A stretch of 64,000 bases of DNA, taken from positions 1,504,001 to 1,568,000 of the forward strand of contig CBDCDZ010000004.1 of assembly GCA_965215565.1 (NCBI GenBank), given 5' to 3'. Position numbers and translations under genes: made by a program. Positions 26,561 to 54,530 of the stretch are shown here, one piece after another. The stretch comes from Trueperaceae bacterium (GTDB taxonomy: Bacteria > Deinococcota > Deinococci > Deinococcales > Trueperaceae). Numbering within the stretch: the first letter of the stretch is position 1; the number at the start of each line of letters is the position of its first letter. A model generated the notes under the pieces. It had not been told where the DNA came from, did not search any database, and worked only from the letters and a program-made list of their open reading frames with translations.

Positions 26561-26591
26561 AAGCTCAGAGTTTTTTGCTCTATACAACGCT

Positions 26592-29668: not shown

Positions 29669-29767
29669 TCACCCCTCGAGCTGAAATTATTAGACTCTAC
29701 AGCGTGAGGTTCAGACGACTGTCAGGCGAGGTCTTCGACCTGGAGTTAGCTCTTGATGCAGTTTCGC

Positions 29768-29797
29768 TGTGCGTGAGTAGCGCGCAACTCACGCACA
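29768..29797. repeat. 30-bp palindrome, copy 6 (TGTGCGTGAGTA GCGCGC AACTCACGCACA)
   Basis: Same ends and core; arm interiors differ but remain self-complementary. Confidence 0.7.
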
Positions 29798-29869
29798 GCA
29801 CTAAATAACCACTTGAGTGTCGAAGCCGTAGCGTAGCGCCGCCGCAACGGTGCGGCGGCTCATCAGCCT

Positions 29870-30493
29870 TCACTTCGCACAGCCGTCGATCACTGTGCGC
29901 ACTGTGAACGCCGCCATCTCCGGGGCACTTTTCTCGTGAGCCTGGAGCAGCTCAGGGCGTGTGAGCGCCTCGAGCGCCGCGAGTAACAGTTCGACGACTA
30001 AAGGTGACGACAGGTCCGGGCGCAGTACGCCTTCTTGCTTGCCCTCTTCCAGAAGCAGGTTAAGTGTACGCCCCACCGTGTCTCGCCGGAACGTCACGAG
30101 GTAGTTCCACACCCGCGGCGCGTTGCGGCTGACGTCCTCTAAAGCCGACGCTTCGAGCCACCCCAGACGCACGTGCACGTTCTGCAAGAACCTCTCTAAC
30201 TTGCTGTGGAATGCTCCCTCGCCCTGAACAGTCTGCTCGATGTCTGCCTGAAAGCTTTCCAGATACTGCTCTAGCGCGTGTTGGAAAAGCGCCTCTTTAC
30301 TGCTGAAGTGCTCGTAGAGCGTCTTTTTACTGATGCGAAGCTCGCGGCTCAGCGCGTCCATCGGGACGTTACTATAGCCCTCGGTGAGAAAGCGCCGCAG
30401 CGCCAACGTTGAGATGCGCTGCGCGGTGTCGGCCTGAGGCGCTTTTGCTGCGTAGCTCGTGGTTTCAATCGTCATCGTATCCAAGTCTAACAA
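29870..30493 (-). CDS. TetR-family regulator
   Basis: GYSNVPMDALSRELRISKKTLYEHFSSKEALF HTH. Confidence 0.92.
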   Translation of the reverse strand: MLDLDTMTIETTSYAAKAPQADTAQRISTLALRRFLTEGYSNVPMDALSRELRISKKTLYEHFSSKEALFQHALEQYLESFQADIEQTVQGEGAFHSKLERFLQNVHVRLGWLEASALEDVSRNAPRVWNYLVTFRRDTVGRTLNLLLEEGKQEGVLRPDLSSPLVVELLLAALEALTRPELLQAHEKSAPEMAAFTVRTVIDGCAK

Positions 30494-30501
30494 AAGTGAG
30501 T

Positions 30502-30942
30502 TTACGACCGCGACGCGCGCTTTCGCTCTGAGCCGGTCGCGAGTTCGCGCTTATGCGCAATGCCAACGAACGCCAAGAGCGCGAGCAGAACGGCGGGCGT
30601 CATCACCTTGTTCGCGGGGTCGTTGATTTTCGCGTGCGTGGCGACTGCCCCCGTCATGGTCGCGCTAAGTAAGACGCTTGCAAGCGGTGTCAGAGCAGGA
30701 CGAACAAAACCTAAGAGGAGTCCAAGCGCACCCCCCACCTCAACCGCGCCTGTCACCACGCGAAACCACTGCGGGTAGCGGAAACGGTCGAAGTCATCGA
30801 CCATGTCGTTCGCTCCCGCAAGCTTGGAGCCGCCCGAGCCTAGAAACATCAGTCCTAATAGTGTTTGTAAAATTCTTAGTGTCCACGTCATGAATCTGCT
30901 CCTTATCTTTGTCTTTTTGACTCGGGTCTTACTTTTAAGCAT
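30502..30942 (-). CDS. DoxX-family membrane protein
   Basis: FLGSGGSKL...YPQWFRVVTGAVEVGGALGLL...GAVATH. Confidence 0.88.
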   Translation of the reverse strand: MLKSKTRVKKTKIRSRFMTWTLRILQTLLGLMFLGSGGSKLAGANDMVDDFDRFRYPQWFRVVTGAVEVGGALGLLLGFVRPALTPLASVLLSATMTGAVATHAKINDPANKVMTPAVLLALLAFVGIAHKRELATGSERKRASRS

Positions 30943-32596: not shown

Positions 32597-32778
32597 CGTT
32601 CCTCTCCTTGTAAACTAAAAAACTTGCATTGGTTTTATAGTTTATAGAGTAGACGATGATCTACTACGTTGTCAAATGGAAAGGATCATAATATGCCTTT
32701 TCTAAGCTTTGTCTCTCCGAAGAAGCGACGATGAGCCTATTCAACTCAGCAATGAAAGGGATGGGCACGCCGGGGTCT

Positions 32779-32808
32779 TGTGCGAGAGATGCGCGCGTTT
32801 GCTGCACA
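32779..32808. repeat. 30-bp palindrome, copy 7 (TGTGCGAGAGAT GCGCGC GTTTGCTGCACA)
   Basis: Direct reading. Confidence 0.85.
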
Positions 32809-36534: not shown

Positions 36535-39215
36535 ATGACGACCCAACGCGATAAACTCACGCTCGCCCAACTCGAGACCTTCCTCCTCCAAGCCGCCGAC
36601 ATCCTGCGCGGCAAGATGGACGCCAACGACTTCAAAGAGTACATCTTCGGGATGCTCTTCTTGAAGCGCATCCCGACCAGTTCGCTGCCAAGCAGGAAGA
36701 GATGAGGCAAGTTTACAGCCATCTTTCCGAAGAGCTAGTGGACGAACTGCTGACGGAGAAGACAACCTACGGCGAGGCGTTCTTTGTTCCAGAAGAGGCT
36801 CGCTGGAATAGGATCAGAGATTTTCAGCACAATATCGGTGAGCAGTTGAACGTCGCCGTTTCTGCCCTTGAAGAGGCTAACGACACGTTTGAGGGTGTTC
36901 TCAAAGACAAGATCAACTTCAACGCGGCGAGTGGCGGCAAGCGTCTCGTGTCAGACGGACGGCTCAAAGACCTCATCAACCACTTCAATACCATCGTTCT
37001 CACTAACGGCAACTTCGAGTTCCCCGACCTCTTGGGCGCAGCCTACGAGTACCTCATCAAGTTCTTCGCTGACAGCGCTGGTAAAAAGGGCGGCGAGTTC
37101 TACACGCCTGCCGAAGTGGTTCGCCTTATGGTGCAACTCGTCAAGCCCAAACAAGATATGTCCGTGTACGATCCGACCATTGGCTCGGGAGGAATGCTCA
37201 TCCAGTCGGCGCAGTACGTCGAGGAGCAGGGGGAAGACCCTATCAAGCTGAACCTCTTCGGGCAAGAATCCAACCCGGCGACCTGGGCGATCAGCGTGAT
37301 GAACATGATTTTGCACAACCTCGCCTCCGCGAGCATCGAGTACGGCGACACGTTAGAGGAACCCCTACACGTTAGGGACGGGCGTCTGCGGCAGTTCGAC
37401 CGCGTTCTAGCCAACCCACCCTTCTCCCAAAACTACACCCGCGCCAACATGGACTTCACCAACTGCTTCCCCTACGGCTTCGCGCCGGAGACGGGCAAGA
37501 AAGCCGACCTCATGTTCGTCCAGCACATGATCGCCAGCCTCAAGGACACCGGCGTCATGGCGACGGTCATGCCGCACGGCGTGCTCTTTCGGGGCGGCAA
37601 AGAGAAGCAGATTCGCGAGGGGTTCGTCAAAGCGGGCATCGTCGAGGCGATTATCAGCCTACCCCCCTCGCTCTTCTACGGCACGGGCATCCCTGCCTGC
37701 ATTCTCGTCATCAACAAGAACAAGCCCGACGGCTTGCGCAACAAGGTGCTCTTCATCAACGCCGACGCAGAGTACGCCGAGGGCAAGAAGCAGAACAAGC
37801 TGCGCCCCGAGGACATCGAGAAGATCGACTGGGTCTACACCCACAAGCACGAAGCGCCCAAATACTCGCGCCTGGTAGACATAGAAGAGATCAGAGACAA
37901 CGACTACAACCTCAACATCTGCCGCTACGTGGACAACACCCCGCCCCCCGAACCCGAGGACGTGCGGGCGCACCTGGTCGGCGGCGTACCTAAACAAGAG
38001 GTGCAAGCGCAGCAGAAACAGCTCGACAAATTCGACATTATGCCCCTGCTCGTCTTCCAGGAGCGCGACGCCGAGTATTACGACTTTCGGGACGAGATCG
38101 GGAGCCGTGACGACCTCAAGCGCATCATCGAAGAGGACCAGAACGTCAGGGCGACCTACCGCCGCATGATCGAGCGGCTCGAAGGTTGGTGGGTAAAAGC
38201 CCGCGACACCTTCGCCCGCCTCGCCCCGCCGAACGGCGCGGACTACCCACAAGCTAAGCTCCCCGACGTTCGCGCCGACCTGCTCGCCTCACTCAAGGCG
38301 ACGCTACAAGAAGAGCGCGTGCTCGACGACTTCCAGGCGGGCGGCGTCTTCGCCAACTGGTGGGACGCCATCAAGTACGACCTCAAAACTATCGTAGCGA
38401 ACGGTTGGCACCATACCCTCATCCCGGACGAATACCTGATACGCGCCTTTTTTCAAGCCGACCAGGACGCGCTCGACATCCTCGCTAACACGCTCAGTGA
38501 CCAAGAGGCGCAGCTCGACGAGGCGGTGCAAGAGGTAGAATACGAGCCCGAGGAAGACGAGAAGGTCACACCCGCCGTGGTCAAGAACCACCTGACCAGC
38601 GAGATCAAGTCCCTCAAAGAGGACGGCGGTCCGCTGCTTTCCGGGGCGGAAGATGAGTTAGCAGGTTACGAGGCGCAGCTTGGGGCGATTAAGGATGCAG
38701 AAGGCGCGATCAAGAAGACCAAAGCCAAGATCAAAGAGCGTGAGGTGCAGCTCGCTGAGAAGCTGCTGCTGAAGCGCTACGGGGTAGAAGAGGTCACGGC
38801 GGACCTGAATGCTCGGCTCAGGCAGGTGCAAAAAGAGGTCGAGGCGTGGGAGGCGAAGCCGGGCGGTGATGCGAAAGAGGAGAAAGCGCGGAAGAGTGAG
38901 GTGAATAAGCTGGGTAAAGATGTGAAGGCGCTTGAGGGGCAGAGGGAGCGGGCGGAAGGGTTGTTTGGGCAGGTTGGGGGGGTGCTTACGGAGGAGGAAG
39001 CGAAGAATCTCATTCTGCAAAAACACCACGACCTTGTTAGAAGCACGCTTGAACGCTATATGGATCAAGAAAGGCGCATTCTACTCAGTAGTTTCAACAA
39101 CCTGAATGAGAAATACTCTACTTCAGCCTATGAATTAGAGGCTGATCGAGAGGACACAATGACTCAGCTTCAGGTAATCATGAAACAGCTAAATTATACC
39201 GAGGCGGTAGCGTGA
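36535..39215 (+). pseudogene. hsdM: Type I RM methyltransferase with a frameshift near 36672
   Basis: ATG 36535 gives [46 protein letters not shown]; the frame then shifts into the 36702 ORF with GEFYTP, DPTIGSGG, NPPF. Confidence 0.9.
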
Positions 39216-40549
39216 GAGGTTGGAAAAGGCAAAAGATAGGGCAGTTATTCGAGTACACAATTCCAGGAGATTGGGGCGGAACTCCTTCTACGAATAGCTC
39301 TGTGCCCGTAGTTCGTTCGACTAACTTTAGGAACGATGGCAGGCTAGATTTGAGCGACATCGTGTACAGAAGTGTTAGTCCCAAAAGCCTGAGTGTGCGT
39401 GAAGTAAATCAAGGAGACGTGCTCATTGAAAAATCAGGAGGTAGCCCAAACCAGCCCGCAGGTAGAGTTGTTTTCTGCGATCAAGAGTTTGGAGGCACGT
39501 GTTCCAACTTTATAGAAGTTGCCAAGATCAAACAAGGTTTCGACAACAGGTTTATTTTCTACCTCTTGTATTTCCTTTACCAGACAGGTCTCGTACTTAA
39601 ATACCAGCAGCAAACAACTGGGATAATTAACTTTAAGCTCAATCAGTACATGGATGAGTTTGTGGAAGTGCCTGGTTCAAAACAAGAGCAAAAAGAGATA
39701 GCTGATGTATTAACAAATATAGACACCGCCATCACTCAAACCGAGGCGCTTATCGCCAAGTACCAGCGTGTCCGCACCGGGCTCATGCAGGACTTGCTGA
39801 CGAAAGGCGTTGACAAAGAGGGGCGCATCCGCTCCGAGGAGACGCACGAGTTTAAGGACTCGCCGCTGGGGAGGATTCCGGTGGAGTGGGATATGGCATC
39901 TATAGCTGATACTGCTAGCAAAAGCCAGGGCTCAACTTCAATTGGACCATTCGGTAGCGATTTACTTGCTAGCGACTATAGGGACCAAGGAGTTCCGGTC
40001 GTTTTTGTTCGAGATATTAAAAGCGATGGTTTCATTTGGAAAAGCGAAGTATACCTGGATCAAGAAAAAGCGGAGAAGCTCGCTGCACACTCCGTACTTC
40101 CGGGTGATGTAATCGCCACAAAAATGGGATTACCGCCCTGTATCTCATGCGTTTACCCGTTAAATATGCCTCCCGGCATCATTACCGCTGATGTAATTCG
40201 ACTTCGTCCAAACTTGGAGATAGCCAATGCTGAATGGCTTGCTCAGTATCTAAATTTTACACCCGTGCGGAATCAGGTTAAAGCAATTACAGGAGGTGTG
40301 ACGCGACCAAAGGTTACGCTTAGAGACTTCAGAAATTTACTCATTGCTCTTCCTAGAATTAGCGAGCAATCTCAAATCCTAAGTATTTTGCGCAAAAATC
40401 AGCAACGAGTTGAGTGCGAAGAGGAGTACGTAAGTAAGCTTAATCATCTGAAAAGTGGTCTCATGCAAGACCTCTTAACAGGTAAAGTTTCCGTTGACGC
40501 GCTTCTTAACCAAACTGAGTCTCAAACACCGGAGGTTGTCGCCTCATGA
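39212..40549 (+). CDS. hsdS: Type I RM specificity subunit
   Basis: Two TRDs with EQ..I...L / GLMQDLLT conserved repeats; KDSPLGRIPVEW. Confidence 0.93.
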   Translation: MRGWKRQKIGQLFEYTIPGDWGGTPSTNSSVPVVRSTNFRNDGRLDLSDIVYRSVSPKSLSVREVNQGDVLIEKSGGSPNQPAGRVVFCDQEFGGTCSNFIEVAKIKQGFDNRFIFYLLYFLYQTGLVLKYQQQTTGIINFKLNQYMDEFVEVPGSKQEQKEIADVLTNIDTAITQTEALIAKYQRVRTGLMQDLLTKGVDKEGRIRSEETHEFKDSPLGRIPVEWDMASIADTASKSQGSTSIGPFGSDLLASDYRDQGVPVVFVRDIKSDGFIWKSEVYLDQEKAEKLAAHSVLPGDVIATKMGLPPCISCVYPLNMPPGIITADVIRLRPNLEIANAEWLAQYLNFTPVRNQVKAITGGVTRPKVTLRDFRNLLIALPRISEQSQILSILRKNQQRVECEEEYVSKLNHLKSGLMQDLLTGKVSVDALLNQTESQTPEVVAS

Positions 40550-43500
40550 TCAAGCCGGATAAGAAGGTCACGCCTAAGCGTCAGAGTGAGCGGCGGAGCG
40601 TTGAGTTGCCGCTGCTAGAGCAGCTCAGGGGCTTGGGCTGGGAGGTGCTGGACCTGGAGATGAAGCAGGAGCCCGCCGACTCGTACCGGGAGAGCTTCAC
40701 GCAGGTCATCCTGGAGCCTCGGCTGCGCGAGGCGCTGCTGCGTATCAATCCTTGGTTGGAGAGCAGTCAGATTACGGAGTTGGTGCGGCGCATCACGCCC
40801 ACGACGGGGAGCCTCTTCGAGAACAACCAGCATATTTTAGACCTGCTCTTAGACGGCACGCCGCTGGACAAGAACCACCAGACGGGCGACCAGAGCCCGA
40901 CGGCTCGCTACGTGGACTTCGACCACATCGAGAACAACGACTTCTTAGCGGTCTGTCAGTTCAAGGTGCGTATCCTCGGCACGGAGAAGCACATCATCCC
41001 GGATGTGGTGTGCTTTTTGAACGGGTTGCCTATCGCCGTCATCGAGTGCAAGTCGCCCAAAGCGCAAGACCCGATTCCCGAAGCGATTGACCAGATGCTG
41101 CGCTACAGCGAACAGCGCGATGAGGGGAGCGAGGGCAACAAGACGCTCTTCTACTACAACCAGTTTTTAGTCGCCACTTGCCGTAACGAGGCGAAGTTTG
41201 GCACGATCAGCAGCCGCAGCGCCAAGCACTACTTCCGCTGGGCTGACCCCTACCCGCGCGAGCTTGACGACATCCGCGAGGGGCAGGCGAGCCCGAACGA
41301 CCAGTTGCGTCTCGTGGCGGGGATGTTTGACCGCCGTAACCTCTTGGACCTCATCCGCGTCTTCACCCTCTTCGTGGAGGATGATAAGGGTAAGCGCATC
41401 AAGGTCGTGGGGCGTTACCAGCAGTTTAGAGCGGTCAAGAAGGCGGCGCGGCGGCTTTTAGATGGCAATAACAAACTACAGCGCGGCGGCATCATCTGGC
41501 ATACGCAGGGCTCCGGCAAGTCGCTCACGATGGTCTTTTTGGTGCGGGAGATGTACCTGCAAGACACGCTCAAGAGTTGGAAGGTCGTCTTCGTCACGGA
41601 CCGGACGCAGCTTCAGGACCAGCTCACGAGTACGACCAAAGCCATCGGCAAGACGGTGCAGGTGGCGGACAGCATCAACAAGCTCAAGGCGCTGTTGCCC
41701 ACCGACTCCTCGGACCTCGTGATGGCGATGATCCATAAGTTTCAGGAGCGGGAGTTGAAGACGAGCGTCTTTGAAGAGATGAACCCAAGTACGAACATCC
41801 TCGTGCTGACGGACGAGGCGCACCGCTCGCAGTACAGCTTGCTGGCGGGGAATCTGAACCGAGCACTGCCCAACGCCACGGAGATCGGCTTTACGGGCAC
41901 GCCCATCGACAAAACCGAGCAGAAGTACGGCGACTACATCGATAAGTACACCATGCGGCAGTCTATCGAGGACGGGGTGACGCTCGAGATCGTCTACGAA
42001 GGACGCACCAACAACGCCGAAGTGGACGATCAAGGCAAAGCGAACGAGTTGTTTGAGGATGTGTTCAGCGAGTACGACTTGGGCGAGCGGCTGCAAGTGT
42101 TGGGCTACGGTGGCAAAGACGCTTTCTTGGAGGCGCAAGAGGTCATCAACGCGAAAGCGCTCGACATGGTCAGGCACTACGCCGAGCATGTGTTTCCCAA
42201 CGGCTTTAAGGCGCAGGTGGTGGCGACCTCTCGCGAAGCCGCGCACCGCTACGGGCTAGCGCTCAAAGACGCCCTCTCAAGAGTCCACGCCGAACTGGAG
42301 CAGAATAACCCGCTCAACGTCGATCTGAAGAGGTTACAGCAACTTGAGGTCGCGGTGGTCATTTCTGGCGGCAGTCATAACGACAAGCCTTATCTCAAGA
42401 AGCACGCCGACGCTACGAGCACAGGAAGGACATCGCCGGCTTCAAGCTCGCCTTCGGCAGCGAAAACGAGGACGGTGTAGAGGGTAACGTCGGTTTTCTC
42501 GTCGTGAACAACATGCTACTAACTGGGTTCGACGCGCCCATCGAGCAGGTCATGTATCTGGACAAGGTCAGCGTGGCGCACAACTTGCTACAAGCTATCG
42601 CCCGCGTGAACCGCGTCGGACCGGATGGGAAGGACAAGGGCTTTGTGGTGGATTATGTGGGCGTCGGTCATCACCTGAAACGAGCCCTAGATGACTATCA
42701 TGAGCGCGAGCAGAAGGAGATTCTCGAGTCGCTGAGCGACCCAGCGCAGGAGTTAGAAGACCTCAGACAGGCGCGTGATGCGGTCTGGGCACTCCTGGAG
42801 CGGTCGGGCGTCCACGACCTGCACGACTACGACGCCTTCTATGACCTCTTCTACGACGAGGAGACGCGCTTCGAGTACATCTTGGCGTTCCGTAAGTTCA
42901 CTAAGGCGTTCAACCTCGTGCTCCCCCGCAAGGAGGCGCTCGACTACCTGGAGGAGTATCTGCAATTCGCCGAGATCAACGTCAAGGCGATGCAGCACCT
43001 GCGCGACAGCCGCCTCAGCATGAAAGGTATCCCCGAGAAGCTGCGCAAGATTACTGACGCCCACCTCAAATCTCAGGACATCGAGCAGAAGGTCGCGCCC
43101 ATTTCAATTATGGATGACGATTTCTTACAGCATGTCGGTAAGAAAAAGCGCACCAAAACCAAAGCCGCCGAGATCGAGCACGGCATCCGGCACCATATCG
43201 ACACGCACCTTGACGAGGACCCTGAACTCTACGCCTCGTTTGCCGAAGCGCTCCAGGAGATCATCAAGACTTTTAAGGACAACTGGCAGAAGATTTACGA
43301 GGAATTGGAAAAGCTCCGGCAACGCATGAAGAACGCGGCGAAAGAGCCAACCTATGGTCTGCACCGCAAGAAGCAGATGCCCCTCTTTCGCATTTTGCAT
43401 AAGGAGATTTACGATGACCAGCCACTAGACAGCGACAACATCTCGTCGCTCGTACCCCTCACGCAGGAGATCACACTCATCTTGGAACGTGAATTGCAGC

Positions 43501-43679
43501 TCTCAGGCTTCTGGGACAACGTGATCGCCCGCAACAGGCTTAAGGGCGAACTTCAGAAAACCCTTCTCTCACCTGAAAACGCTAAACTACCTAATGTGGT
43601 CAAGAAGCGTAACGAGGTCATCACGCGGGTCATGGAGGTGGCGGAGCGCAACCACGACGCCATCCTCTACGCGGCGTAG
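40546..43679 (+). pseudogene. hsdR: Type I RM restriction subunit with a frameshift near 42410
   Basis: PD...NGLPIAVIECK, WHTQGSGKS, DEAH, FTGTP; the second frame has MLLTGFDAP and QAIARVNR. Confidence 0.9.
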
Positions 43680-43685
43680 GTCGCT

Positions 43686-44366
43686 ATGAAACTTAACTAC
43701 AGCGTCGTCTACTCTGACCGCCGGAAGACGGTGGGCATCACCGTCGAGCGTGACCGTTCAGTCGTGGTGCGAGCCCCCCGCCGCGCCACGGCGGACCAGA
43801 TCGAGCGCGTGGTGCAGCAGAAGAAGCTGTGGATTTATGAAAAGCTACGCCATCCGCAGAAGTATAACCTCGCCGAAGCGAAGCCTAAAGAGTTCGTTTC
43901 TGGCGAGTCTATCCTCTACTTGGGGCGCAACTACCGCCTGGAGATCGTCGATGACGACTTTGCAGGCGTGCGCTTCGAGAACGGCTTTTGCCTATCGCGA
44001 CAGTCTCAGCCGGACGCGCAAGTGTTCTTGGAGGCGTGGTTCAAGGAGCGGGCGGCGGAGAAGATCACGCCTCTAGTGCGAGAGGTCGCAGAGAATTTAG
44101 GGGTAGCCTATAACCGCATCATGATCTCTGACTTGCAGTACCGCTGGGGCTCGTGTACGCCTAATGACAACCTCAACTTCAACTGGCGGCTGATCCGAGC
44201 CCCGATGTTTGTTATTAGGTACGTCGTCGCGCACGAGCTGACGCATCTTTTAGAGCCAAACCACACACCTCGGTTCTGGAACATCGTTCATGTACAGGTG
44301 CCGCGCTACGCTAGGGCTAAAGCGTGGCTGAAAGCGCATGGACTGACATTATACAAAGGGGTCTAG
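43686..44366 (+). CDS. YgjP/M48-like metallo-hydrolase typical of type I RM loci
   Basis: WGSC, YVVAHELTHL..NH...FW. Confidence 0.9.
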   Translation: MKLNYSVVYSDRRKTVGITVERDRSVVVRAPRRATADQIERVVQQKKLWIYEKLRHPQKYNLAEAKPKEFVSGESILYLGRNYRLEIVDDDFAGVRFENGFCLSRQSQPDAQVFLEAWFKERAAEKITPLVREVAENLGVAYNRIMISDLQYRWGSCTPNDNLNFNWRLIRAPMFVIRYVVAHELTHLLEPNHTPRFWNIVHVQVPRYARAKAWLKAHGLTLYKGV

Positions 44367-44420: not shown

Positions 44421-45023
44421 TCATAGCGGTCTAACAACATCATTCTCTTTCATTGTGACTATATGGTCGATGTTTTTGAAGTTTTGGGCGTTCGAAAAAT
44501 CTGCTGTGGGGTCTCGTTTTGCGAGCCGATATAGCATCAGTCTGAGAAAAAGAGCTCGCCAGTCTTTATTCTGCTGCTTGCCTATTTTCTTAGTCTTGGC
44601 AACCGATTGAGGAAACGCTCGCCAGAGTACGCCCCAGGTAAATTCGCAATCAAAGTAGGCTTTTCTGTAACGATAGTGAGTTGTTCGGCTAACTTTCCAA
44701 CGGCTACACACCCTGTCAATAGAGCGAGAATTGTAGTGCTGATCAAACAGAATCAAGGCCATAAGCGGCTTATTGAGCTTGAGAGGACGACCTCGCCCGT
44801 CGAGTTCAAAGATTTTAGATATAGTGCTTGGATTCCCTCGTTTGTAGTTAGTTGACTGATTTTTTGACGCAAGGCTGCCACAGGGGTGATGGCATTGGCG
44901 GAGCCAGTTCGGAAAATTGATTCTAGTTGGGTGACGACCACCGCGCTGATACGCTGTTGCGGCAGATCGGTGTGGACGGAAGGTCCTACAGCCATGAGGT
45001 TTGTGGAAACTCTCCGTATGCAC
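44421..45023 (-). CDS. Possible Hin/resolvase-type HTH protein divergent from tnsA (true start probably well downstream of 45023)
   Basis: GRGRPLKL...SIDRVCSRWKVSRTTHYRYRK resembles the GRPxKL...SxxxIAxxxGVSRxTxYRY pattern. Confidence 0.45.
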   Translation of the reverse strand: MHTESFHKPHGCRTFRPHRSAATAYQRGGRHPTRINFPNWLRQCHHPCGSLASKNQSTNYKRGNPSTISKIFELDGRGRPLKLNKPLMALILFDQHYNSRSIDRVCSRWKVSRTTHYRYRKAYFDCEFTWGVLWRAFPQSVAKTKKIGKQQNKDWRALFLRLMLYRLAKRDPTADFSNAQNFKNIDHIVTMKENDVVRPL

Positions 45024-45575
45024 TCTTATGTTCGGAATGTTGTTGAGGAACCTTGTCAGATAACGTACAAAGATGGCGCTGGAAAGACTCGCCGTTACAC
45101 TCCCGATTTCCTCGTCGTATACGAATTGCCGGAGGAATATAGCTACTCCTCCACTGTCCTCTATGAGATTAAGTGGTCTGGCGACTTACGTGAGAACTAC
45201 GAAAAATACGAGGAACGCTTTGCGGCGGCATATAAGTATGCCGCTGAGCGTGGCTGGCGCTTTCGTGTAATTACCGAGAAGCGCATAGACCGTTATCATC
45301 GCTCCGCCACGCTTTTACATCGCTTCCTGCGCCGCAAACTCGAATACGAACACGTGAGATACGTTCTCGATACTGTCACGTTAGAGCCGGGCATCACAGC
45401 TCACGATTTTCTAGATGCGGAGTTGAGCCCCGTCGATCCCTTTAACTTGCTTACGACTATCTGGACGTTACTCGCGCGTGAGCAGATCAGCGCGGAGTTA
45501 GAGGGCGGCATAACAAATCGGACACCCTTATTCCCGGCTCGCGCCGGAAATCCTTGGGCTAGACCTGTCCTATGA
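44886..45575 (+). CDS. tnsA: TnsA-like endonuclease
   Basis: EEPCQITY...RRYTPDFLV...YEIK...AAERGWRFRVITE (PD-(D/E)xK TnsA pattern). Confidence 0.88.
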   Translation: MMALAEPVRKIDSSWVTTTALIRCCGRSVWTEGPTAMRFVETLRMHSYVRNVVEEPCQITYKDGAGKTRRYTPDFLVVYELPEEYSYSSTVLYEIKWSGDLRENYEKYEERFAAAYKYAAERGWRFRVITEKRIDRYHRSATLLHRFLRRKLEYEHVRYVLDTVTLEPGITAHDFLDAELSPVDPFNLLTTIWTLLAREQISAELEGGITNRTPLFPARAGNPWARPVL

Positions 45576-48083
45576 GCCGTTTAAGACTGTTGGCGCGCAC
45601 CAAAGTGTCTTACGCAGGCTATGACTGGGAGATCGTAACAGTAGATAACAGACAGAAGCTTACATCTCTAAAGCGCGAAAATGGAATCACTTGCCTCGCG
45701 CCGACTTCGGAACTCGGTTCACCTGGTCGACATAAAATACCTGTTCCAAGCGAATACGAAGCGCTGCCTGAAAACATAAAGAATCTTTACGGTGATCTAG
45801 TAGCCTTAGACCGAACCGCAAAGGACAAGGAGCGCTTAGCCAAAAAAAACAGCTGTAGTAGGTCCACCGTCTACCGCCAACTCGAGAAGGCAAGAAGAGG
45901 TCCTGAAGAACTCAAGCGGAAACGGCGTGCGGACTTCGGAAACTCCAGCTTCGAGACGAGAGTCAAAGATATTATTGAGGCCGAAGTCAAAAGGGCACCT
46001 GCGTTTAGGAGCAACAGGGAAATCGCCAAACGTGCATTGAACGAGATGCACAAGCCGGACAAGGACGACAAGTACATAGAGAAAATTCCGAGCAAGTCGA
46101 CAGTACTTCGGTATGTGAGTCGGGAGCGCGGCAAGGTGCCTTACGATCCTTCCAAAGACGCACCCCATGTCAAACCGATACACCCCTTTGATGAACTCGA
46201 GATGGATTCGACTCAGGCAGATACCTATGTCGTATATGACGACTATAAGGAGGGTCGCCCCTGGCTTACATCAGTCGTTGAGGTTCTAACCGGTCTGCGG
46301 TGGATACTTGTCACGCGCGAAGAACCTAGCTCGCGTATAACAGGGTTGCTTATCATCATGGTCGTATTCGGTTTGGACCTCCCGCACGTTAAAAACAAAC
46401 CTCCGAACGGTTTATTTGAAAAGCTGTTGGTAGTGGCTCACCTCAGACTGCCAACCTTAACCTCCAGGTTGTAGCTAACGAGGAACATATGCAGGCAGAT
46501 CAGGCAGATAAGGTGCATGTGCTGGGCTTTAGAGAAGGACAAGGTCTTTCTGACAAAGCGGGCGAGGCGCTGACGAATTGTGTTGTTGAAACGTTCAACG
46601 TGAGCCGTAAGTCCAGTTTCTTTGCCGACAGCCTGATGTTGCTCGTCGGGGATAACAGCTTGATAAGCTTCCCAAAAGTCACTGAAGACGAGACCTTTTT
46701 TGTAGGCGTTAGGTACGTTGCCCCAAAGCTTCTTGCACGTAGCGCTACCGCGTCCTCCTATGACGCAAGCAACGACTTGCCTGGTCTGTTTGCAAAGAGC
46801 CAGCCATATCCAGAGCTTTTTAGCTTTGCAGCTTACAAACGACCACATTTCGTCGAGTTCAAGCTCTACAGCTCCAGGTACTTTAGGAGCTATGAGTGTA
46901 TCGCTAAGGGGAGGCGTTATCTTGGCTTTTTTTGAGCCAGGCGTCCAGTGTGTTACGTGATATCCCAAACGTTCTAGCGACACCGCGCATACTAGAGCGC
47001 TCTTGATAAGCTTTAAGAATCTCTTCCTTTCTCTCTTTACTGTAGCCGTAATTTGGGTTCTCTAAACTCGCTCGGTTGCATTCCTTACAGTGGTAGCGCT
47101 GTTTGCCATTAGGGGCTTTGCCGTTCTTCTTTACGTTCTCGCTGCCGCAGTGATAACACTGTACTGTCTGAGTAACCATCCCTTAGCTTAGCAGTTCGTG
47201 TTGAGCCACTACCAAGCTGTTCACAGATAGCGGCAAAGCGCTGAAAAACCTGAGTACAGAATCGCTGAATGAGAAGCATGATCTAACACTAAAATACCGT
47301 CCAAAGGGAAAATCCTGGTATGGCGGCACGGTAGAGACACTGTTCAATAACGACAGCGAATTCGTGAAAGAGTTTATGGGAGCTGTGGTCGATAGCGACG
47401 GCAGCGGTCGCAAGCGGAAATCAGGCAAAGCTGAGTACACCTTTGAGGAGTATAAGCGCTTGGTAGAGGGATACACTTACGATCATCTCAATATGACTCC
47501 TCGGACCGGCGAGGAGTTGTCTCCACTCGACAAGTTTTATGTGCTCCTTGTAGACCCTCCCGGCGGGGCAGGCTTAGGTAGCCTCGACCAGGTTCCGAAA
47601 GAGGAACACCAGCAGTTCAAACTCGACTGTATGCCGTTCATCACGAGAACAGTATCAAAGGATGGCGTTCGAGATGATTACACTATCTATAAGAGCGGTG
47701 CGCAAAGACGACTTATCGGCAAAAAGGTGGTTGCACGCTATGACCCGTCGGGCTATACCGATGTTATGCATGTCTGGGACGAGGAGAGCGCAGCCTATAT
47801 CGAATTTAGACCGAACTACGAAAGTCTTCCCAAGATGACACGGAAGGATCGCAAACGGGTTGTCAAAACTTTGAATAAGCTAGGTGTTGAACCTAGCATG
47901 GAAAGCATTGCTGAGAAGTATCGTGAGCTTGTAGAACAGGAGGCAGTCGAAGCCACGCAGCGAGCACCCGCCGAACTCACTTCTACTGAGGACGACACTC
48001 CCCACCCCCGCCATATTCGGGCATACGAGCTAGAAGACGACCTCGGCGACGAGATGCCCTACATTAGCCACAGGGACGGCTGA
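45572..48083 (+). pseudogene. tnsB: TnsB DDE transposase interrupted by IS1 (572 aa after IS removal)
   Basis: HTH SRSTVYRQL, PSKSTVLRY, EMDSTQAD, rejoined KLFTDSG, GGTVETLF, Mu-like C-terminal RYDP; both halves are in frame across the 8-bp TSD. Confidence 0.9.
46429..47213 (-). mobile_element. IS1-family element (785 bp) with insA (46904-47179) and insB (46438-~46930)
   Basis: IRs GGTAGTGGCTCA / TGAGCCACTACC; 8-bp TSD AAGCTGTT (46421-46428 and 47214-47221); zinc ribbon plus HTH; ELDEMWSFV...SDFW...ERFNNTIRQRLARFVRKTLSFSK; A7 slippery site. Confidence 0.95.
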
Positions 48084-48084
48084 G

Positions 48085-49053
48085 ATGCGTAGGTCTGCTC
48101 TCGCAACTCACTACCTGGATGCACCTCTCGAGAAACGTATCGAACTTGTGGAGAACCATCCCTTCGTCGGCTGGCCTGCTGCTCACGACTTCTTTAAGCG
48201 AATAGATAGGATGCTTCTTGCTCGCCGGAAACGGTACCAAAAGCACCCAAATATGCACCTATACGGAAGAGCACACCACGGTAAAACAGAATGCTTGCGT
48301 GAGCTCCAGAAGCGTTATCCAAGAGGCGAGTTTAAGGGCGGATACGAACAGAGACCCGTCGTGTACCTACAGGCGGAGAGTGGAGACCGACCCGAAGACC
48401 TGTACAAGCGTTTGCTGGAGGAACTGAACCTGATGCTAGCCGCAACGACCAAAGATGAGGTTAGGAAACAGCTTATGGTACTCGTTCCCGCAATGGGCGT
48501 GAGGGTGCTGGCGGTCGATGAAATGCAAGATTTGGATGCAGGCGAAGGAAGCCGGTTCAAGCCAGTGATCAATCACCTCAAGGCGAGGAGCAACGACCTC
48601 GGGTTAGTTGTTGTTACAGCAGGGGTCGAGGGCTCGAGCGACGTCGTGCGGAATTCGGATCAACTGAAGAGTAGGTTCAAAGAGTTTAAACTACCTACCT
48701 GGCAGGTAAGAAAATTGTCGGACGAGACCAAGAAAAAGATGCCCGAAAAAGAGCTAGAGGAGATCAAAGGAGAGATTAGGGGGTATAGGCTATGGCTTAG
48801 AGGTATGGAATCGCATATGCCCTTGCCAGAGGCATCGAAGCTCGAAGATTTGTGGGAAAGCATTATCTTCCTAGCCGAATTCATGAGTCAGAACAGTAGT
48901 AAGACCCCTAAAGAATTTAAAGAGAAGCCGAAGCGCGGAGCACCGATAGGCTACGTCCGCGACCTCATTGTGGGTGCGTGTGTTCTGGCAATGGAGCAGG
49001 ACTGCTCAAAAATCATTCCAGATCACCTAGAAACCGTGGCGAGCAAATGGTAA
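48085..49053 (+). CDS. tnsC: TnsC/TniB-family AAA+ ATPase
   Basis: Walker A GRAHHGKT, Walker B VLAVDEMQ, QLKSRF. Confidence 0.88.
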   Translation: MRRSALATHYLDAPLEKRIELVENHPFVGWPAAHDFFKRIDRMLLARRKRYQKHPNMHLYGRAHHGKTECLRELQKRYPRGEFKGGYEQRPVVYLQAESGDRPEDLYKRLLEELNLMLAATTKDEVRKQLMVLVPAMGVRVLAVDEMQDLDAGEGSRFKPVINHLKARSNDLGLVVVTAGVEGSSDVVRNSDQLKSRFKEFKLPTWQVRKLSDETKKKMPEKELEEIKGEIRGYRLWLRGMESHMPLPEASKLEDLWESIIFLAEFMSQNSSKTPKEFKEKPKRGAPIGYVRDLIVGACVLAMEQDCSKIIPDHLETVASKW

Positions 49054-50744
49054 CTTTCGATCTCCGTAAGGATGGCTGGATACCTGTGCTAGACGGCGAC
49101 ACTTGGCGGCTCGTCGGTATACGCGAAGCTTTCGCAAAAGGCGACGAACTACAGCTTGCCTGTGCAGACCCATTGGAAGAGGTCGTTATCGTCAGGCTGC
49201 TCGGGGAAGTCGTGAGAGGAGCCGCTGGGGGATGCGTAACCGAAGCCTCGCCCAGCTACGAAAGGATAAGCCGCTACCTCACACGCTATCCGCTCTACTT
49301 CATTCACCCTACGCATCCCTTCTACCAGATATGGGACCTTACGTGCAATACAAGCTGGATAACGCTCCATCCTTCCAAGAACAGTATGGACACGCGGGTC
49401 GTCCACGACCATAGTCGCGTCGACAGGCCCCCTCCCCTCACGGAAGACGAGGCGGTGAGACTCCACCTGCAGGCTCAATCGTTCGCGCCGACCGCCTTAC
49501 GCAGGGGAGGCTATGGCTACACAGTCAATGGGCCGCTCCTTAATCTCGTTGTGACACACGTTCTAGGTCCTAACCTTACAAGCACGATATTTGCAAATTC
49601 ACCGCGGTGAGAACGCGAGGTTAAACCCATATGGCGAACGAAGATAAACACGATTGCGTCTGTTCTCGCCGCCCGCGACAACAAAGTTGTGTTGAGCCCA
49701 TACACGCCTCTCACACGGATGCTTCGTTTCGAGCAAGATGGCTACACGTTCAAAATCGGGCACGCGCACGGGCTTCGCCCTAACCGCTTAAATGACCCGA
49801 TGCTCTCATTCACTGAGCGGGGCAAACCTCTACCTTGGAAGGCGTGCCACGATAGCCTCGCTTACCTGCAAAGAGTCCACCGCATTGGTGGCGTAACTCC
49901 ACTCGTAACATCGCGGGCGAGGCAAGCCGTTGAGAACCCCAACGACTATCGTGTTGCCGTCACCTACATGGTCGCCGATAAAGCTAAGCCTGTGACAGTG
50001 AAGAGGTTTACCCTTCCTCTGGTAGTCCCAACAGGCGAGTTCGCGAACAGAGTTTGTGATTCTTTAGAGGTAGCGCTCAAGGATTTGAAGAGGCGTTTGC
50101 GGTACTTAGGTATACGTGAAGAACAAATCGAAGACGCAAGCCGGACTCTAAGGACGCGCCTAGCCGACACATTACCCCAGCATTTAAGATCAGGAAGCGA
50201 GGCGTTGTGGAAGGAGGAAGTGAGGACAACTATGACCGAGGTTGAGCAGCATATCAATGTTCTAGCATGGCCCAAACCTCAACCAGCAAAGCGACGAGAG
50301 CCAAGTTCACGCGATGAAAGCTTCATTCGATGGTTGACTGTATTGTCCCAACCCGAACGCAGGGCGTTTAAGACTTTACCCGAGTCGCCGCGCTACCCGA
50401 CTTACCGATTTAGGCGTTTTCTGTACGAGAGAGATGGCCCTGAAGTCTTGCGCGCCTTTTCACTCGTCGCGCACTTGTACGCGAACAATGGCGGCTCCGG
50501 CGACATGCCACTCGCCGAGCGACTCGCGACGGACGCCTTAGATATTCCGCTCGCGCATCTCTCAGCAGCCGACACCTGGGAGGTTCTCTCCAGCATCTTA
50601 CGTAGCACTATAGGCGACCTCAAAGAACCGCCCGACTGGGTATATCTCCTCTACGACCTGAGGCGCTGGAATGGCCCAACAGGTCAAGTCGTAAAAGCAT
50701 GGAAATCAGATTATAAGCGTACGTTTCAGAGGAGGCACGCATGA
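49047..50744 (+). pseudogene. cas8e: Type I-E Cas8e(Cse1)-Cas11(Cse2) fusion with an in-frame TGA at 49608-49610
   Basis: FDLRKDGWIPV...RLL, HPTHPFYQ, GPNLTSTI..N, PIW, YTPLTRMLR, NDPM (Cse1). C-terminal FIRWL...LVAHLYA...DWVYLLYDLRRW...V..AWKSDY (Cse2). The two ORF-track pieces share one frame. Confidence 0.82.
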
Positions 50745-51850
50745 GAGTCGAGATTCATACTCTGAGGATGTTGGGGCCAAGCTCTGTCAATAATGGGAAA
50801 GACAGACTGCCCAAACACTGCACCTACGGTGGGGTTCGGCGCACTCGCGTAAGTGCGGAGGCGCAGAGGCACGTGATCAGACAAGCGTTCAGAAAGTCGC
50901 TGGAGAGTTCCGCACCGTCCACGCGGATGCTTCTCGGCGAGCTTAGAGGCGCGCTTAAAGCTCGCAAGGAGTTACAACCGCCTAACGGGGTGCGGATCGA
51001 CCTTCTGGCCAGGAAGACGCTCGCGTTTCTCAAGCTAGAGGCCGACGAACACGGAGTGAGCAGGGTCCAGGTGAGATATGCTGAGGGAGCGTTCGCCCGG
51101 CTCGCCGAGGTCGTAGCGACCCACCGAGAGACCATCTTAACCAAGGAGAAAGTCACAAAGAGGCTGGAATGGGAGCTAGCAAACGCCCTTTTCGGTCCGA
51201 CGAATACCGAACTTCACGTGTTTGGCCGTTACCTCGCCGCCTTCCCGGATGTCGAAATCTTCTTATGTCTCGATGTCGCTAGCGCAGTATGCGTCAGCGC
51301 TTCGCCTCTGGAGGAAAACTTCTTCTCCTCAATCGATGACATTGCGAGTAAAGACCCTAACTCGCCCTACGGCATTGCTCACACCAACACCAACTACTTC
51401 AGCTCGCCAAATTTCTACGGATTCACTTCTATCGACTTGGCGCAACTCTGCGCGAACCACGGCAAGGAGGGTGTCGAACAGATCGTTAAGACACTCATCG
51501 ACCTTGTCGTCTATCAGTTTCCCAAAGCTAAGCATACGTCGTCAGCACCGTACGCGGTTCCTTACCTCGTGACGCTTGCAGCGGGTGAGGGGGCATGTTC
51601 GCATTCGGCATTGCAGGCGTTCGACGAGCCAGTAAGGTCCAGTGGGGGTATTAGAAAGCGGGCAGTGAAACGCTTCCATGAGCACTGGGAACGAAGCCAC
51701 AGCACATTCGCGCCCGCTCGCTATGCGACGCTCGCCACTGCGAGCTTAATCGACATACCCGAAAACAGTGTTCTTAACCCAATGTCTTATAACAACGCGA
51801 AAGAGGAGGTGATGGCGTGGACAACCCAATCGCTTACACGCTGCTCCTAG
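50741..51850 (+). CDS. cas7: Type I-E Cas7 (Cse4/CasC)
   Basis: IHTL....PSSVNNGKDRLPKHCTYGGVRRTRVSAEAQR, FGR, FFSSIDD. Confidence 0.9.
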   Translation: MRVEIHTLRMLGPSSVNNGKDRLPKHCTYGGVRRTRVSAEAQRHVIRQAFRKSLESSAPSTRMLLGELRGALKARKELQPPNGVRIDLLARKTLAFLKLEADEHGVSRVQVRYAEGAFARLAEVVATHRETILTKEKVTKRLEWELANALFGPTNTELHVFGRYLAAFPDVEIFLCLDVASAVCVSASPLEENFFSSIDDIASKDPNSPYGIAHTNTNYFSSPNFYGFTSIDLAQLCANHGKEGVEQIVKTLIDLVVYQFPKAKHTSSAPYAVPYLVTLAAGEGACSHSALQAFDEPVRSSGGIRKRAVKRFHEHWERSHSTFAPARYATLATASLIDIPENSVLNPMSYNNAKEEVMAWTTQSLTRCS

Positions 51851-52449
51851 TCCTATCTGGCCCAATGCAGTCGTGGGGCGGGCGCACCTACACCGAGCGG
51901 ACAACCAACCTCACTCCAACTAAAAGCGGTGTCGTCGGGCTCATAGCCGCAGTACTAGGACGACGTCGAGATGAGGATATAAGTGACCTCGCCACTTTAA
52001 GAATGGGCGTACGCGTGGACCGGGCAGGGCTCCTCGAGACGGAATTCATCACCGGCCAAAATATCATCTCGGCGGACGGCACGAAGGTCCATGCCAGCTC
52101 GTCAACCGTAAAGCACTACCTAGCGGATGCTGTTTTTCTGGTCGGACTTGAGGGTGCACGGTGGACGCTCGAGTCTATTCGCGAGACGGTTGAGATGCCA
52201 CGCTTCCCTCTTTACCTCGGGCGACGTGGGTACGTTGCAGACAGACCTATTTATCTCAGCGACGGATTTCAACAAACGAACCTCGAGAGTTCGCTTAGAG
52301 AGTACGAACTCGTTGGACCTCGACGAACGGACGCATTTGAGGTCGAAGTTGAGGTAACTTCGGGCGGTGATTTGGTCTTCGACCAACCTATAGGACCTCG
52401 GCGCTTCGGTCCGCGGCGCGTAAAACGGTACAGGCTATGGCGGTTGTGA
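51817..52449 (+). CDS. cas5: Type I-E Cas5 (CasD)
   Basis: LLLVLSGPMQSWG...PTKSGVVGLIAAVLGRRR, YLADAVFLVGL, PLYLGRR. Confidence 0.95.
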   Translation: MDNPIAYTLLLVLSGPMQSWGGRTYTERTTNLTPTKSGVVGLIAAVLGRRRDEDISDLATLRMGVRVDRAGLLETEFITGQNIISADGTKVHASSSTVKHYLADAVFLVGLEGARWTLESIRETVEMPRFPLYLGRRGYVADRPIYLSDGFQQTNLESSLREYELVGPRRTDAFEVEVEVTSGGDLVFDQPIGPRRFGPRRVKRYRLWRL

Positions 52450-53039
52450 TACTGACAGAATTCGATCTCAATCTATCCAATCCCAACGTGAGCCGTGACG
52501 TTTTCGACAGATACAGTGCACATCAAACGATGAAGCGGCTGACGGAAAGTTCTATTGGACGTGCGCTCTGGCTCCTGCGCGCGAGAGAGAGTTCGGCGCG
52601 GCTCGTGGTACAGACCGAAACGCCCATCTCTGAGGAAACTGTCAACGCTCTTATCAAGTCAGGTTACGCTTTGCGGGTACGTCAGCAGGCGCTGATTCTT
52701 GAGTACCCGCGCGATGCTGTGCTTTACTTCTATCTCGAGGCGAACGCGGTGCGCCGTGGAAAGATCGTCCGGCCTGCTATTGAGCGAGAAGAGAGGTTGA
52801 GTTGGCTAGAAGAGAGGCTAAAAGGCGCCGGAACCAAACTCATCGATGTTGAGGTGTTAAGAAGTCACACATGTGACGTTGTTCCAAAGGACTACAAGCT
52901 CTATACGGTAACCTATCACGGTTTGATATGCGTCAAGAACCCAAAGGAGGCTTCAAGGTCGTTGCGCAAAGGCATAGGACGCTCTAAGCACCTCGGATGC
53001 GGTCTGCTTCTTACGAAGGCAGTAGACTTAGGGGTATAA
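52437..53039 (+). CDS. cas6e: Type I-E Cas6e (Cse3/CasE)
   Basis: DRYSAHQ, LEAN, C-terminal GIGRSKHLGCGLL glycine loop. Confidence 0.92.
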   Translation: MAVVILTEFDLNLSNPNVSRDVFDRYSAHQTMKRLTESSIGRALWLLRARESSARLVVQTETPISEETVNALIKSGYALRVRQQALILEYPRDAVLYFYLEANAVRRGKIVRPAIEREERLSWLEERLKGAGTKLIDVEVLRSHTCDVVPKDYKLYTVTYHGLICVKNPKEASRSLRKGIGRSKHLGCGLLLTKAVDLGV

Positions 53040-53066: not shown

Positions 53067-53157
53067 GTTGTTTCCGCACGCGCGGGGGTGAACGGCCCAG
53101 GTTGGCCAGACCGGGATCCAGTCCCAATATATTCCCCGTGCGAGTGGAGACGGAACA
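53067..53157 (+). CRISPR. One-spacer mini-array: repeat 53067-53095, spacer 53096-53128, degenerate repeat 53129-53157
   Basis: GTTGTTTCCGCACGCGCGGGGGTGAACGG (29 nt, I-E hairpin), spacer CCCAGGTTGGCCAGACCGGGATCCAGTCCCAAT, then ATATTCCCCGTGCGAGTGGAGACGGAACA; starts 27 bp after cas6e. Confidence 0.88.
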
Positions 53158-53163
53158 AAAATA

Positions 53164-53922
53164 TCAGCGAGATAAATAATACAACCACTCAAACGCTGTC
53201 AAGCGCCAGTACCGATCTTTTAGATTAAAGCCAAAGCTGTGACCCGCGCTCTGGGATTCGATCATCTTCTGAAGCCTCTTATTATAACGCAAGTTGTCCA
53301 GCAACTGCCTAGACTTAAAATGAATCGTATTGCGAGGCGAAGAGATAACTGCTTCAATAAGAGCGTCGTGAAAGTGGTAAAGGTCATCATCAATCCATCC
53401 GACGGGTTCGGTAGGCGCGTCTGCTAAATCATCACCACAGCAGTAACAGTAGCATTCAGAGTTCCACCGTTGCTCGTGACGGGCGTAGATATCAACTTGA
53501 GCACCACACTCCGCACAATCATCTCGAAGAAGACAGCGATGAATGCTGCACACTTCAACGACATCAACGTACCAAACTTTTCGAAACCACCTGAACTCGA
53601 AACAGCAGAGCGGGCAGAAGCGCGGCGTTTTCCGAATCACTCGCGACGCCGAACCAGAACAACCCAGTTCTCCTACTCGCCTCGGAATCAGGGCGTCCAA
53701 GATGATTGACTCATCGGCCTGAACTCCATCGGCTAGGACGGAATAAAGATTCGACCGCTTTGCTTTGATGATGTCAGGTGCGTTAGAAATACCATAAACC
53801 CTATGAGATTTCTTCAACCGAGCTATGAATCGTTCGACTGAAAGACCGTTGCCGTAACTCAGTCTGGCAAGGTAGGAAGTAAAGGCTTCGCCTTCATCGG
53901 GTTTGTCTCTAAACGCCCACAC
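53164..53922 (-). CDS. tniQ: TniQ-family target-selector protein
   Basis: PDEGEAFTSYLARLSYGN, RFCPLC, W...VEVCSIHRCLLRDDCAECG, CYCCGDDL zinc-finger pattern. Confidence 0.9.
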   Translation of the reverse strand: MWAFRDKPDEGEAFTSYLARLSYGNGLSVERFIARLKKSHRVYGISNAPDIIKAKRSNLYSVLADGVQADESIILDALIPRRVGELGCSGSASRVIRKTPRFCPLCCFEFRWFRKVWYVDVVEVCSIHRCLLRDDCAECGAQVDIYARHEQRWNSECYCYCCGDDLADAPTEPVGWIDDDLYHFHDALIEAVISSPRNTIHFKSRQLLDNLRYNKRLQKMIESQSAGHSFGFNLKDRYWRLTAFEWLYYLSR

Positions 53923-53939
53923 TACATATCATGTCATTA

Positions 53940-54017
53940 GTGTAGACTGCAAAGGTGAGTTTCAAGTACTGTTCGCAAATAACTCGATTCAATTCGCAAA
54001 TAGCGTGATTTTTGACA
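53940..54017 (-). mobile_element. Tn7-like transposon end with tandem TnsB-site repeats
   Basis: Minus strand reads TGTCAAA-AATCACGCTATTTGCGAA-TTG-AATCGAGTTATTTGCGAA (15/18 identical repeats); terminal TGT at 54017. Confidence 0.75.
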
Positions 54018-54530
54018 AGAGCCAACCCCAAACGCCAAGAAACCCTCATCGTCGTCGGACTTGACCCCGGCTTAGCCAACTTGGGCCTGGGCGCGATTCG
54101 CGAAACGGGCAAAGAGGTCACGCATTTAGGCAGCACGCTGGTACGTACAAACAGCCGCACGGATCAAGCGGAGCGTTTGGCGGCGATTTACACCGAGATG
54201 ACCGACTTCTTGAAGGCGCATCGCCCCGACGTGCTCGCCATCGAAGGGCAGTATTTTCACCGCCAGCGCGACGTGGCGTTTAAGGTAGGGCAGGCTTTGG
54301 GCGTGTGCCTTTTAGCCGCGCAGCAACAGGGCGTCGAGACCGTTGAGTACGGACCGATGCAGGTCAAGCAGGCGCTCGTGGGCACGGGGCGCGCGAGCAA
54401 GGCCCAGGTGGGCTACATGGTTCGCGCCATGTTAGGTCTCACCCAGACCCCCGAGAGCCACCACGTCGCCGACGCGCTCGCGCTCGCGCTGACGCATCTG
54501 AGCGCGCGGCAACTGCAGTCGCTGGGTTAA
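54012..54530 (+). CDS. ruvC: Holliday junction resolvase RuvC
   Basis: GLDPGLANLG, LAIEGQY, YGPMQVKQALVGTGRASKAQV, DALALAL. Confidence 0.96.
   Translation: MTRANPKRQETLIVVGLDPGLANLGLGAIRETGKEVTHLGSTLVRTNSRTDQAERLAAIYTEMTDFLKAHRPDVLAIEGQYFHRQRDVAFKVGQALGVCLLAAQQQGVETVEYGPMQVKQALVGTGRASKAQVGYMVRAMLGLTQTPESHHVADALALALTHLSARQLQSLG

Follow-up and report, generated by a model that had tools for sequence, protein, structure and literature searches.

A Tn7-like element with type I-E Cascade genes, very probably a decayed CRISPR-associated transposon homing to ruvC, in a Trueperaceae bacterium

Described systems and the content of the locus

Independent captures of CRISPR systems by Tn7-like elements show how an immune complex can become a transposon guide. 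In the accessible portions of the 2025 classification (PMC12669027), class 1 Tn7-like CRISPR-associated transposons (CASTs) comprise types I-F, I-B, I-D, I-C, and IV-A, with a Mu-linked I-A and I-E5 listed in addition, and the sole I-E variant given there is I-E5, which lacks TniQ and bears Cas3. A 2024 review names I-E among the Tn7-like captures, with detail absent (PMC11656645 section 7); "I-E" is absent from the main text and three supplements of Faure 2023, and the available parts of PMC10910872 contain no TniQ-bearing I-E element. In the literature covered here, partly available in excerpt and exclusive of subscription papers, patents, and bioRxiv supplements, an I-E element carrying both TnsA and TniQ is not described, and neither ruvC nor arginase is given as an insertion site; a TniQ-bearing type I-E CAST has apparently not been described before.

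We analyzed 64,000 nucleotides of a Trueperaceae genome (contig CBDCDZ010000004.1, positions 1,504,001 to 1,568,000), and "the window" refers to this whole stretch. Matches to Thermus suggest that the host is related to Deinococcus-Thermus. Judged from its sequence, one locus in it is very probably a decayed Tn7-like, TniQ-bearing type I-E CAST with RNA-guided homing. Its genes, and those adjoining it, are as follows.

36702..44366, plus strand: type I restriction-modification operon and a YgjP-like gene (Pfam; hsdR in two ORFs)
44421..45023, minus strand: small HTH gene, divergent from tnsA (weak HTH_7 match; real start probably near 44760)
44886..45575, plus strand: tnsA, TnsA-like endonuclease (PF08722, E=8e-19; true start possibly later)
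45572..48083, plus strand: tnsB, DDE transposase, interrupted by IS1 (Mu-transpos_C, PF09299, in the 3′ part)
46429..47213, minus strand: IS1-family element within tnsB, 785 bp (InsA and DDE_Tnp_IS1 matches; 8-bp flanking duplication)
48085..49053, plus strand: tnsC, TniB-type AAA+ ATPase (PF05621, E=9e-34; Walker A and B readable)
49047..50744, plus strand: cas8e-cas11 fusion (Cse1 and Cse2 matches on two pieces; start overlaps the end of tnsC)
50741..51850, plus strand: cas7e, highly diverged (PF09344, E=4e-47)
51817..52449, plus strand: cas5e (PF09704; TIGR01868 above cut-off)
52437..53039, plus strand: cas6e (PF08798; TIGR01907 at cut-off)
53164..53922, minus strand: tniQ, 252 aa, convergent on the array (PF06527, E=3e-11, above cut-off)

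The genes tnsA-tnsB-tnsC-cas8e/cas11-cas7-cas5-cas6e form a single overlapping operon, in which the tnsA stop codon overlaps the tnsB ATG, followed by the array and the convergent tniQ. All four genes expected of a Tn7-like CAST (tnsA, tnsB, tnsC, and tniQ) are present by Pfam, and assignment to type I-E rests on Cas8e, Cas11, Cas7e, Cas5e, Cas6e, and an I-E repeat (Pfam and NCBIfam), with several scores below curated cut-offs. Neither the ORF list nor Pfam places cas3, cas1, or cas2 in the window element, and cas8 directly follows tnsC.

The window copy is inactive and decayed, with IS1 in tnsB, a stop codon in cas8-cas11, and a second end that was not found. A single in-frame stop (49608-49610) interrupts cas8e-cas11, which nonetheless aligns over its full length, at 28% identity, with an unbroken 590-aa fusion in G044, a genome of the same family and another genus; the tnsB product is 26% identical to the intact TnsB of G044. 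A contig from run X1, possibly the source sample, is identical at the stop at 49608, and in run X4 there is a joint skipping 49262-50286 in cas8-cas11 at a depth of 2.3. The predicted structure of TniQ has a pLDDT of 36, and the model is unusable.

Two features beside the operon may belong to the element. The divergent HTH gene (44421..45023) is a possible regulator of it, and the restriction-modification operon at 36702..44366 is possibly cargo of putative membership: comparison with two same-genus genomes gave matches only in short patches to one (G001) and none to the other (G002). The operon itself looks frameshifted (36540-43679), the hsdM start region and hsdR each lying in two frames.

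As far as the available parts of the sources describe them (PMC11300857, 10.1101/2021.08.16.456562, PMC11406308), type I-F3 CASTs resemble the window element in having tnsABC and tniQ, a Cascade without cas3, cas1, and cas2, and a very short array, and also in a self-targeting spacer next to an atypical repeat, an insertion point tens of base pairs beyond the protospacer, and a conserved host-gene site. Unlike I-F3, the window and G044 elements encode a type I-E effector (Cas8e-Cas11 fusion, Cas6e) with an AGG or AAG PAM, and all Cas matches are to I-E families, not to Cas8f/5f, Cas7f, or Cas6f; their tns and cas genes are joined in a single overlapping operon, the array is followed by a convergent tniQ, and the targets are ruvC and arginase rather than the guaC, yciA, rsmJ, and ffs given for I-F3 in the portions available.

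The telomeric I-E5 CAST of Streptomyces likewise combines tnsB, tnsC, and I-E Cascade genes in an operon, without cas1 or cas2 (10.1101/2024.11.13.623437; PMC12669027, both in part). It is described, in the available text of 10.1101/2024.11.13.623437, as a TnsBC element without TniQ that keeps an active Cas3 and has one end plus a telomere, with no protospacers beside its ends, whereas the window element has TnsA and TniQ, lacks cas3, has a protospacer near its end, and is internal to a 4.39-Mb contig. In type I-B, I-C, and I-D CASTs, too, a Tn7-like element has independently captured a type I effector, with other Cas subtypes; I-B1 also has tniQ beyond the array, according to partial sources, although I-B homing is usually via TnsD and the window element would home by RNA with one short TniQ. 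An Rpn-associated I-E Cascade (10.1101/2021.08.16.456562, in part) also lacks Cas3 and is proposed to mobilize DNA, but it is tied to the Rpn nuclease and not to Tn7 proteins.

The array, its ruvC match, and the insertion junction

The array holds two repeats and one spacer, whose match lies in the neighboring ruvC.

53067..53095, plus strand: CRISPR repeat 1, I-E type (fold with a 7-bp stem and 4-nt loop; 17/29 to the host canonical I-E repeat)
53096..53128, plus strand: single spacer, 33 nt, putative homing guide to ruvC from its match
53129..53157, plus strand: repeat 2, atypical and degenerate (weak hairpin; 13/29 to repeat 1, 19/29 to the host repeat)
54053..54085, minus strand: protospacer in ruvC, over the GLDPG motif (24/33 match to the spacer)
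54086..54088, minus strand: PAM 5′-AGG, flanking the protospacer

Alignment of both repeats with the host canonical I-E repeat fixes the register and direction of the array; the last G of repeat 1 equals the last G of the PAM. The original prediction took the spacer for a homing guide to the GLDPG codons of ruvC, a motif which we take to carry the first catalytic Asp, and realignment reproduced its details. The spacer matches the minus strand of 54053-54085 at 24 of 33 positions with mismatches at 5, 12, 14, 15, 21, 24, 30, 32, and 33; the six within the GLDPGLANLG codons are synonymous, positions 5 and 14 are rG:dT wobbles (in the sequence, a spacer G opposite a protospacer A), and the 5′ flank on the protospacer strand is AGG. 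The codon before GLDPGLANLG differs, reading L in the spacer and V in the host. That AGG functions as an I-E PAM agrees with the accessible text of PMC5904413, in which E. coli Cascade uses AGG and AAG PAMs and every sixth base is flipped out. Beyond the flipped positions there remain the wobbles at 5 and 14, internal mismatches at 15 and 21, and distal ones at 32 and 33, and Cascade may still bind this 24/33 target despite the seed wobble at 5 and the true mismatches at 15, 21, 32, and 33.

When the spacer is compared with the 4.49-Mb genome (8.98 million positions), ruvC 54053-54085 is the top non-self match, but the score of 24/33 is not significant by itself because 9 of 40 shuffled spacers also reach at least 24 somewhere in the genome. 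A match this good at most 200 positions from a fixed point, the transposon end, has a chance of about 0.5-2.5e-5 by a binomial estimate. That end and its surroundings are as follows.

53970..54017, minus strand: transposon end, TGT at 54017 (two TnsB-site-like repeats, offsets 8 and 29; resembles the G044 ends)
54018..54022, plus strand: where a target-site duplication would be expected (its partner copy was not found)
54012..54530, plus strand: host ruvC (TIGR00228 above cut-off; an in-frame TTG from the transposon end replaces the native start, and the native promoter is replaced)

The two TnsB-type sites, 19 bp each, are similar to each other, and the Tn7-type end is separated from the protospacer by 35 bp and from the PAM by 68 bp. 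In G001 and G002, which both lack the Tns/Cas operon, ruvC and ileS are about 1 kb apart, versus 40 kb in the window, and similarity to their ruvC loci begins at 54020 (G001) and 54018 (G002), directly outside the TGT end. The codon immediately before the first matching ruvC codon is ATG in G002 and GTG in G001, so the insertion cut ruvC at its start; the expectation that the element sits just upstream of ruvC thus held in that it adjoins the gene, whereas the insertion falls at the start codon and not cleanly upstream. A contig from run X4, a separate study, spans the end-ruvC junction (53696-54065), and the junction is therefore not an assembly artefact; on these comparisons of sequence it marks a genuine insertion. 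The native sequence that precedes ruvC in the sister species is absent from the window's genome (G000), where motif, profile, and duplication scans for a second end or duplication gave nothing convincing.

ruvC is intact, with 43 synonymous and eight non-synonymous codon differences from G001, and is probably translated from the TTG at 54012, which comes from the transposon end. A promoter-like site at 53903-53932 is at chance level (two found, 1.0 expected). Record 20 of run X4, compared with window 53928-54521, represents an abundant relative that aligns loosely into the end; with its eight additional letters, an ATG remains ahead of the ruvC codons. This may reflect a second insertion, displaced outward by about 8 bp, or else an alignment that was forced.

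The spacer had been proposed to derive from ruvC of another host. We scanned the spacer pattern, with flipped positions masked, over 364 genomes of the phylum, using the reversed pattern as a control: 27 genomes match, one being the spacer itself, and the control gave none. All 26 non-self matches are the ruvC motif (AGG in 13 of 26), which bears out a ruvC origin. Its attribution to another host was not borne out, as no donor was identified among the 364 genomes (best match 27/33) and the identical synonymous pattern arises if the host's own ruvC has drifted. The all-synonymous differences argue against random spacer decay, and a foreign donor and host-gene drift would fit alike. Comparison with mobile elements left the ruvC reading standing, with no full-length match among 50,697 phage records (best 19 nt) or 72,556 plasmids (best 18 nt), and none at all in IMG/VR.

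A second element beside an arginase gene

G044 carries a full-length element with the gene order of the window and whole reading frames, including an intact tnsB and the 590-aa Cas8e-Cas11 fusion. Most of its proteins are 22-35% identical to those of the window (Cas5, 44%), and its TniQ is 272 aa, compared with 252 aa. Its array has three repeats, and the distal spacer has a 29/31 match with PAM AAG at the 3′ end of the neighboring arginase gene (TIGR01229), the mismatches being at 12 and 30 only, both flipped positions; such a match has a chance of about 1e-7 per genome. The target-side end, which resembles the window end, begins 74 bp from the PAM, after the arginase stop codon. The two ends are 48,985 bp apart, and the element is flanked by a 4-bp direct repeat versus the 5 bp expected. 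Beyond the far end, after 4 bp, is a remnant of a second target-side end (G044:C2:3047102-3047160), which suggests repeated insertion at one site. In a sister genome, G005, the arginase site is free of the element, and the G044 spacer matches there at 32/33.

Both elements have the same orientation, and their PAM-to-end offsets, 68 bp in the window and 74 bp in G044, are 6 bp apart. The proposed homing function of the spacer is borne out by the Tn7-type end 35 bp past the protospacer, the junction where sister similarity starts, and G044, whose element adjoins its own spacer-matched gene; it is the operon context, end position, sister breakpoint, ruvC-only matches, and G044 that support homing, not the match score. 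Of the further claim that ruvC is the attachment site, what stands is its use by the window element (end, junction, and spacer match); it is not a family-wide site, as G044 uses arginase.

Spacer 1 of G044 (L041 8302-8332) matches the coaE gene of its own genome at 26/31, antisense, without an I-E PAM and with three seed mismatches. Its direction would put an insertion inside the gene, and no insertion adjoins the match; against coaE in the loci of six other relatives it scores 23-25/31 (L229). Its plasmid matches are short or at chance level only (best 27/30, in a pxpB gene), and across the spacers of both elements, phages, plasmids, and IMG/VR gave no full-length match.

Three further observations concern G044. 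Read by eye, its TnsC (L041 12457-13392) has an unusual Walker A and lacks the acidic pair expected in Walker B. Its cargo, at C2 about 3027000-3046500, appears by eye to include a large defence-like cluster with PAPS-reductase-like and cysteine-desulfurase-like genes and very long ORFs. A two-domain tyrosine recombinase adjoins its tnsA.

Full-length matches to the Cas8e-Cas11 fusion occur in only two of the 364 genomes, the window's and G044, with partial matches in 92; short ENA contigs encode two more fusion proteins, 82% and 62% identical to that of G044. Cse1-Cse2 fusions also occur in other phyla in the ESM Atlas, so the fusion by itself does not set these elements apart. With Cas7, none of the best 150 matches among 1.84 billion representatives exceeds 33% identity, and none of 53 candidates from genome contigs proved a relative with DNA context; a metagenome scan with TniQ gave no relatives among 242 candidates. 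The fusion scan of genome contigs returned 39 loci, none with Tns or TniQ matches, and that of metagenomes one partial match (29%); word-index searches with Cas7 and TnsC returned the query only. A TnsC survey found 37 places, 35 of them other than the two elements, and Cas matches in none of the 34 of those inspected. The window and G044 elements are joined in the TniQ tree (at 96) and the TnsA tree (at 81), whereas the TnsC tree does not join them and a quick Cas7 tree adds an unrelated long row; with their long branches, the trees are compatible with one origin of the two elements.

Competing explanations, a proposed mechanism, and other loci

One alternative, which we judge improbable, is that TniQ or another protein selector chose the site and that the Cas3-less Cascade travels as cargo, binding or repressing the neighboring host gene. 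Self-targeting Cas3-less Cascades can repress transcription; Tn7-like elements with TniQ and without Cas are common in these hosts, as the 34 Cas-free TnsC loci illustrate, and the coaE-matching spacer has no adjoining insertion. However, TniQ proteins of 252 and 272 aa probably leave no room for a DNA-binding extension like that of TnsD, and the cas genes share one operon with tnsC, which they overlap. The two elements sit at genes that are unrelated; in either case the gene matches the spacer of the element beside it, and distance and orientation are as in CASTs.

More doubtful still is that the spacer was taken up from flanking DNA after insertion, for example by host Cas1-Cas2, which would make the match a consequence of location. 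A spacer copied from the flank should be near-identical, whereas the window spacer differs at 9 of 33 positions, six of them synonymous, and the G044 spacer matches the element-free G005 better than its own host; the offset and orientation also recur in two elements. These points weigh against uptake even though spacer acquisition near DNA breaks is known and Cas1 is present elsewhere in both hosts (partial in G000). An accidental resemblance of a phage or plasmid spacer to ruvC, for which the shuffled scores could be cited, is least credible and largely refuted by a spacer that encodes a ruvC peptide, has phylum-wide matches to ruvC only and no full-length phage, plasmid, or IMG/VR match, and has its protospacer 35 bp from a transposon end.

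RNA-guided homing is the explanation we prefer, and of its parts the gene content, match, PAM, end, breakpoint, and second example are seen directly. By analogy with known CASTs, Cas6e would cut the two-repeat transcript, and the Cas3-less Cascade (Cas8e-Cas11, Cas7, Cas5, and Cas6e) would bind the AGG-flanked protospacer at the ruvC 5′ end without cutting. TniQ would bridge Cascade to TnsC, and TnsA/TnsB would insert the element, its tniQ side toward the target, about 35-43 bp past the PAM-distal end or 68-74 bp from the PAM; PMC11656645 section 7 gives 30-50 bp for CASTs, in keeping with these distances. The guides would hit conserved coding motifs near gene ends, facing outward, antisense near the ruvC start and sense near the arginase stop in G044, so that the gene body would be spared. 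A separate I-E locus with an ORF of cas3 size is present in the window's host, and attack on the site by the I-E Cascade-Cas3 of that host may be limited by the atypical repeats and the mismatches, as described for I-F3 in the accessible parts of PMC11406308 and PMC11300857.

Several points count against homing by RNA: there are two elements only with context, the offsets differ (68 versus 74 bp), the window's genome yielded no second end or duplication, the window's guide has its seed wobble and true mismatches, shuffled spacers reach its score, G044 has a 4-bp repeat and a TnsC without a canonical Walker B, the coaE match of the other G044 spacer lacks an I-E PAM and would place an insertion inside the gene, and monophyly rests on long branches. 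With some reserve, we lean toward a fuller account in which a Tn7-like transposon independently captured an I-E Cascade, homes by crRNA only to the edges of housekeeping genes (ruvC, arginase, and perhaps coaE), changes site by swapping spacers, and supplies the ruvC start from its end, with G044 encoding a programmable I-E integrase. Two relatives at two housekeeping genes would illustrate attachment-site switching by spacer change and bear on the source of homing spacers. Type I-E Cascade is the best-studied class 1 effector, and a TniQ-linked I-E system makes testable both the docking of TniQ on a Cas11-containing Cascade and an adaptive role of the Cas8-Cas11 fusion; the full-length G044 element is a candidate programmable integrase.

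The host's canonical I-E locus lies at G000:C4:4338500-4350500 with two arrays; its cas1 has a Pfam match only at positions 147-251, and its cas6 gave no match with the window Cas6 as query. Two more Tn7-like elements (tnsABC-tniQ) without cas matches are at G000:C4:3019000-3024500, which by eye adjoins a comM-like ORF, and at 3708800-3713500. Elsewhere in the window, gene blocks of 15693-32800 recur at 83-98% identity in six or more scattered places in the sister genome G001, and several junctions (near 20513, 22442, 24352, 26560, 27677, 29792, and 32768) carry a short GC-rich palindrome, a pattern suggestive of cassettes that either were mobilized through a repeat-associated mechanism or collected here. 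At 15765-20218, a patatin-like gene beside a 976-aa protein without a Pfam match is 97% identical to a block in G001.
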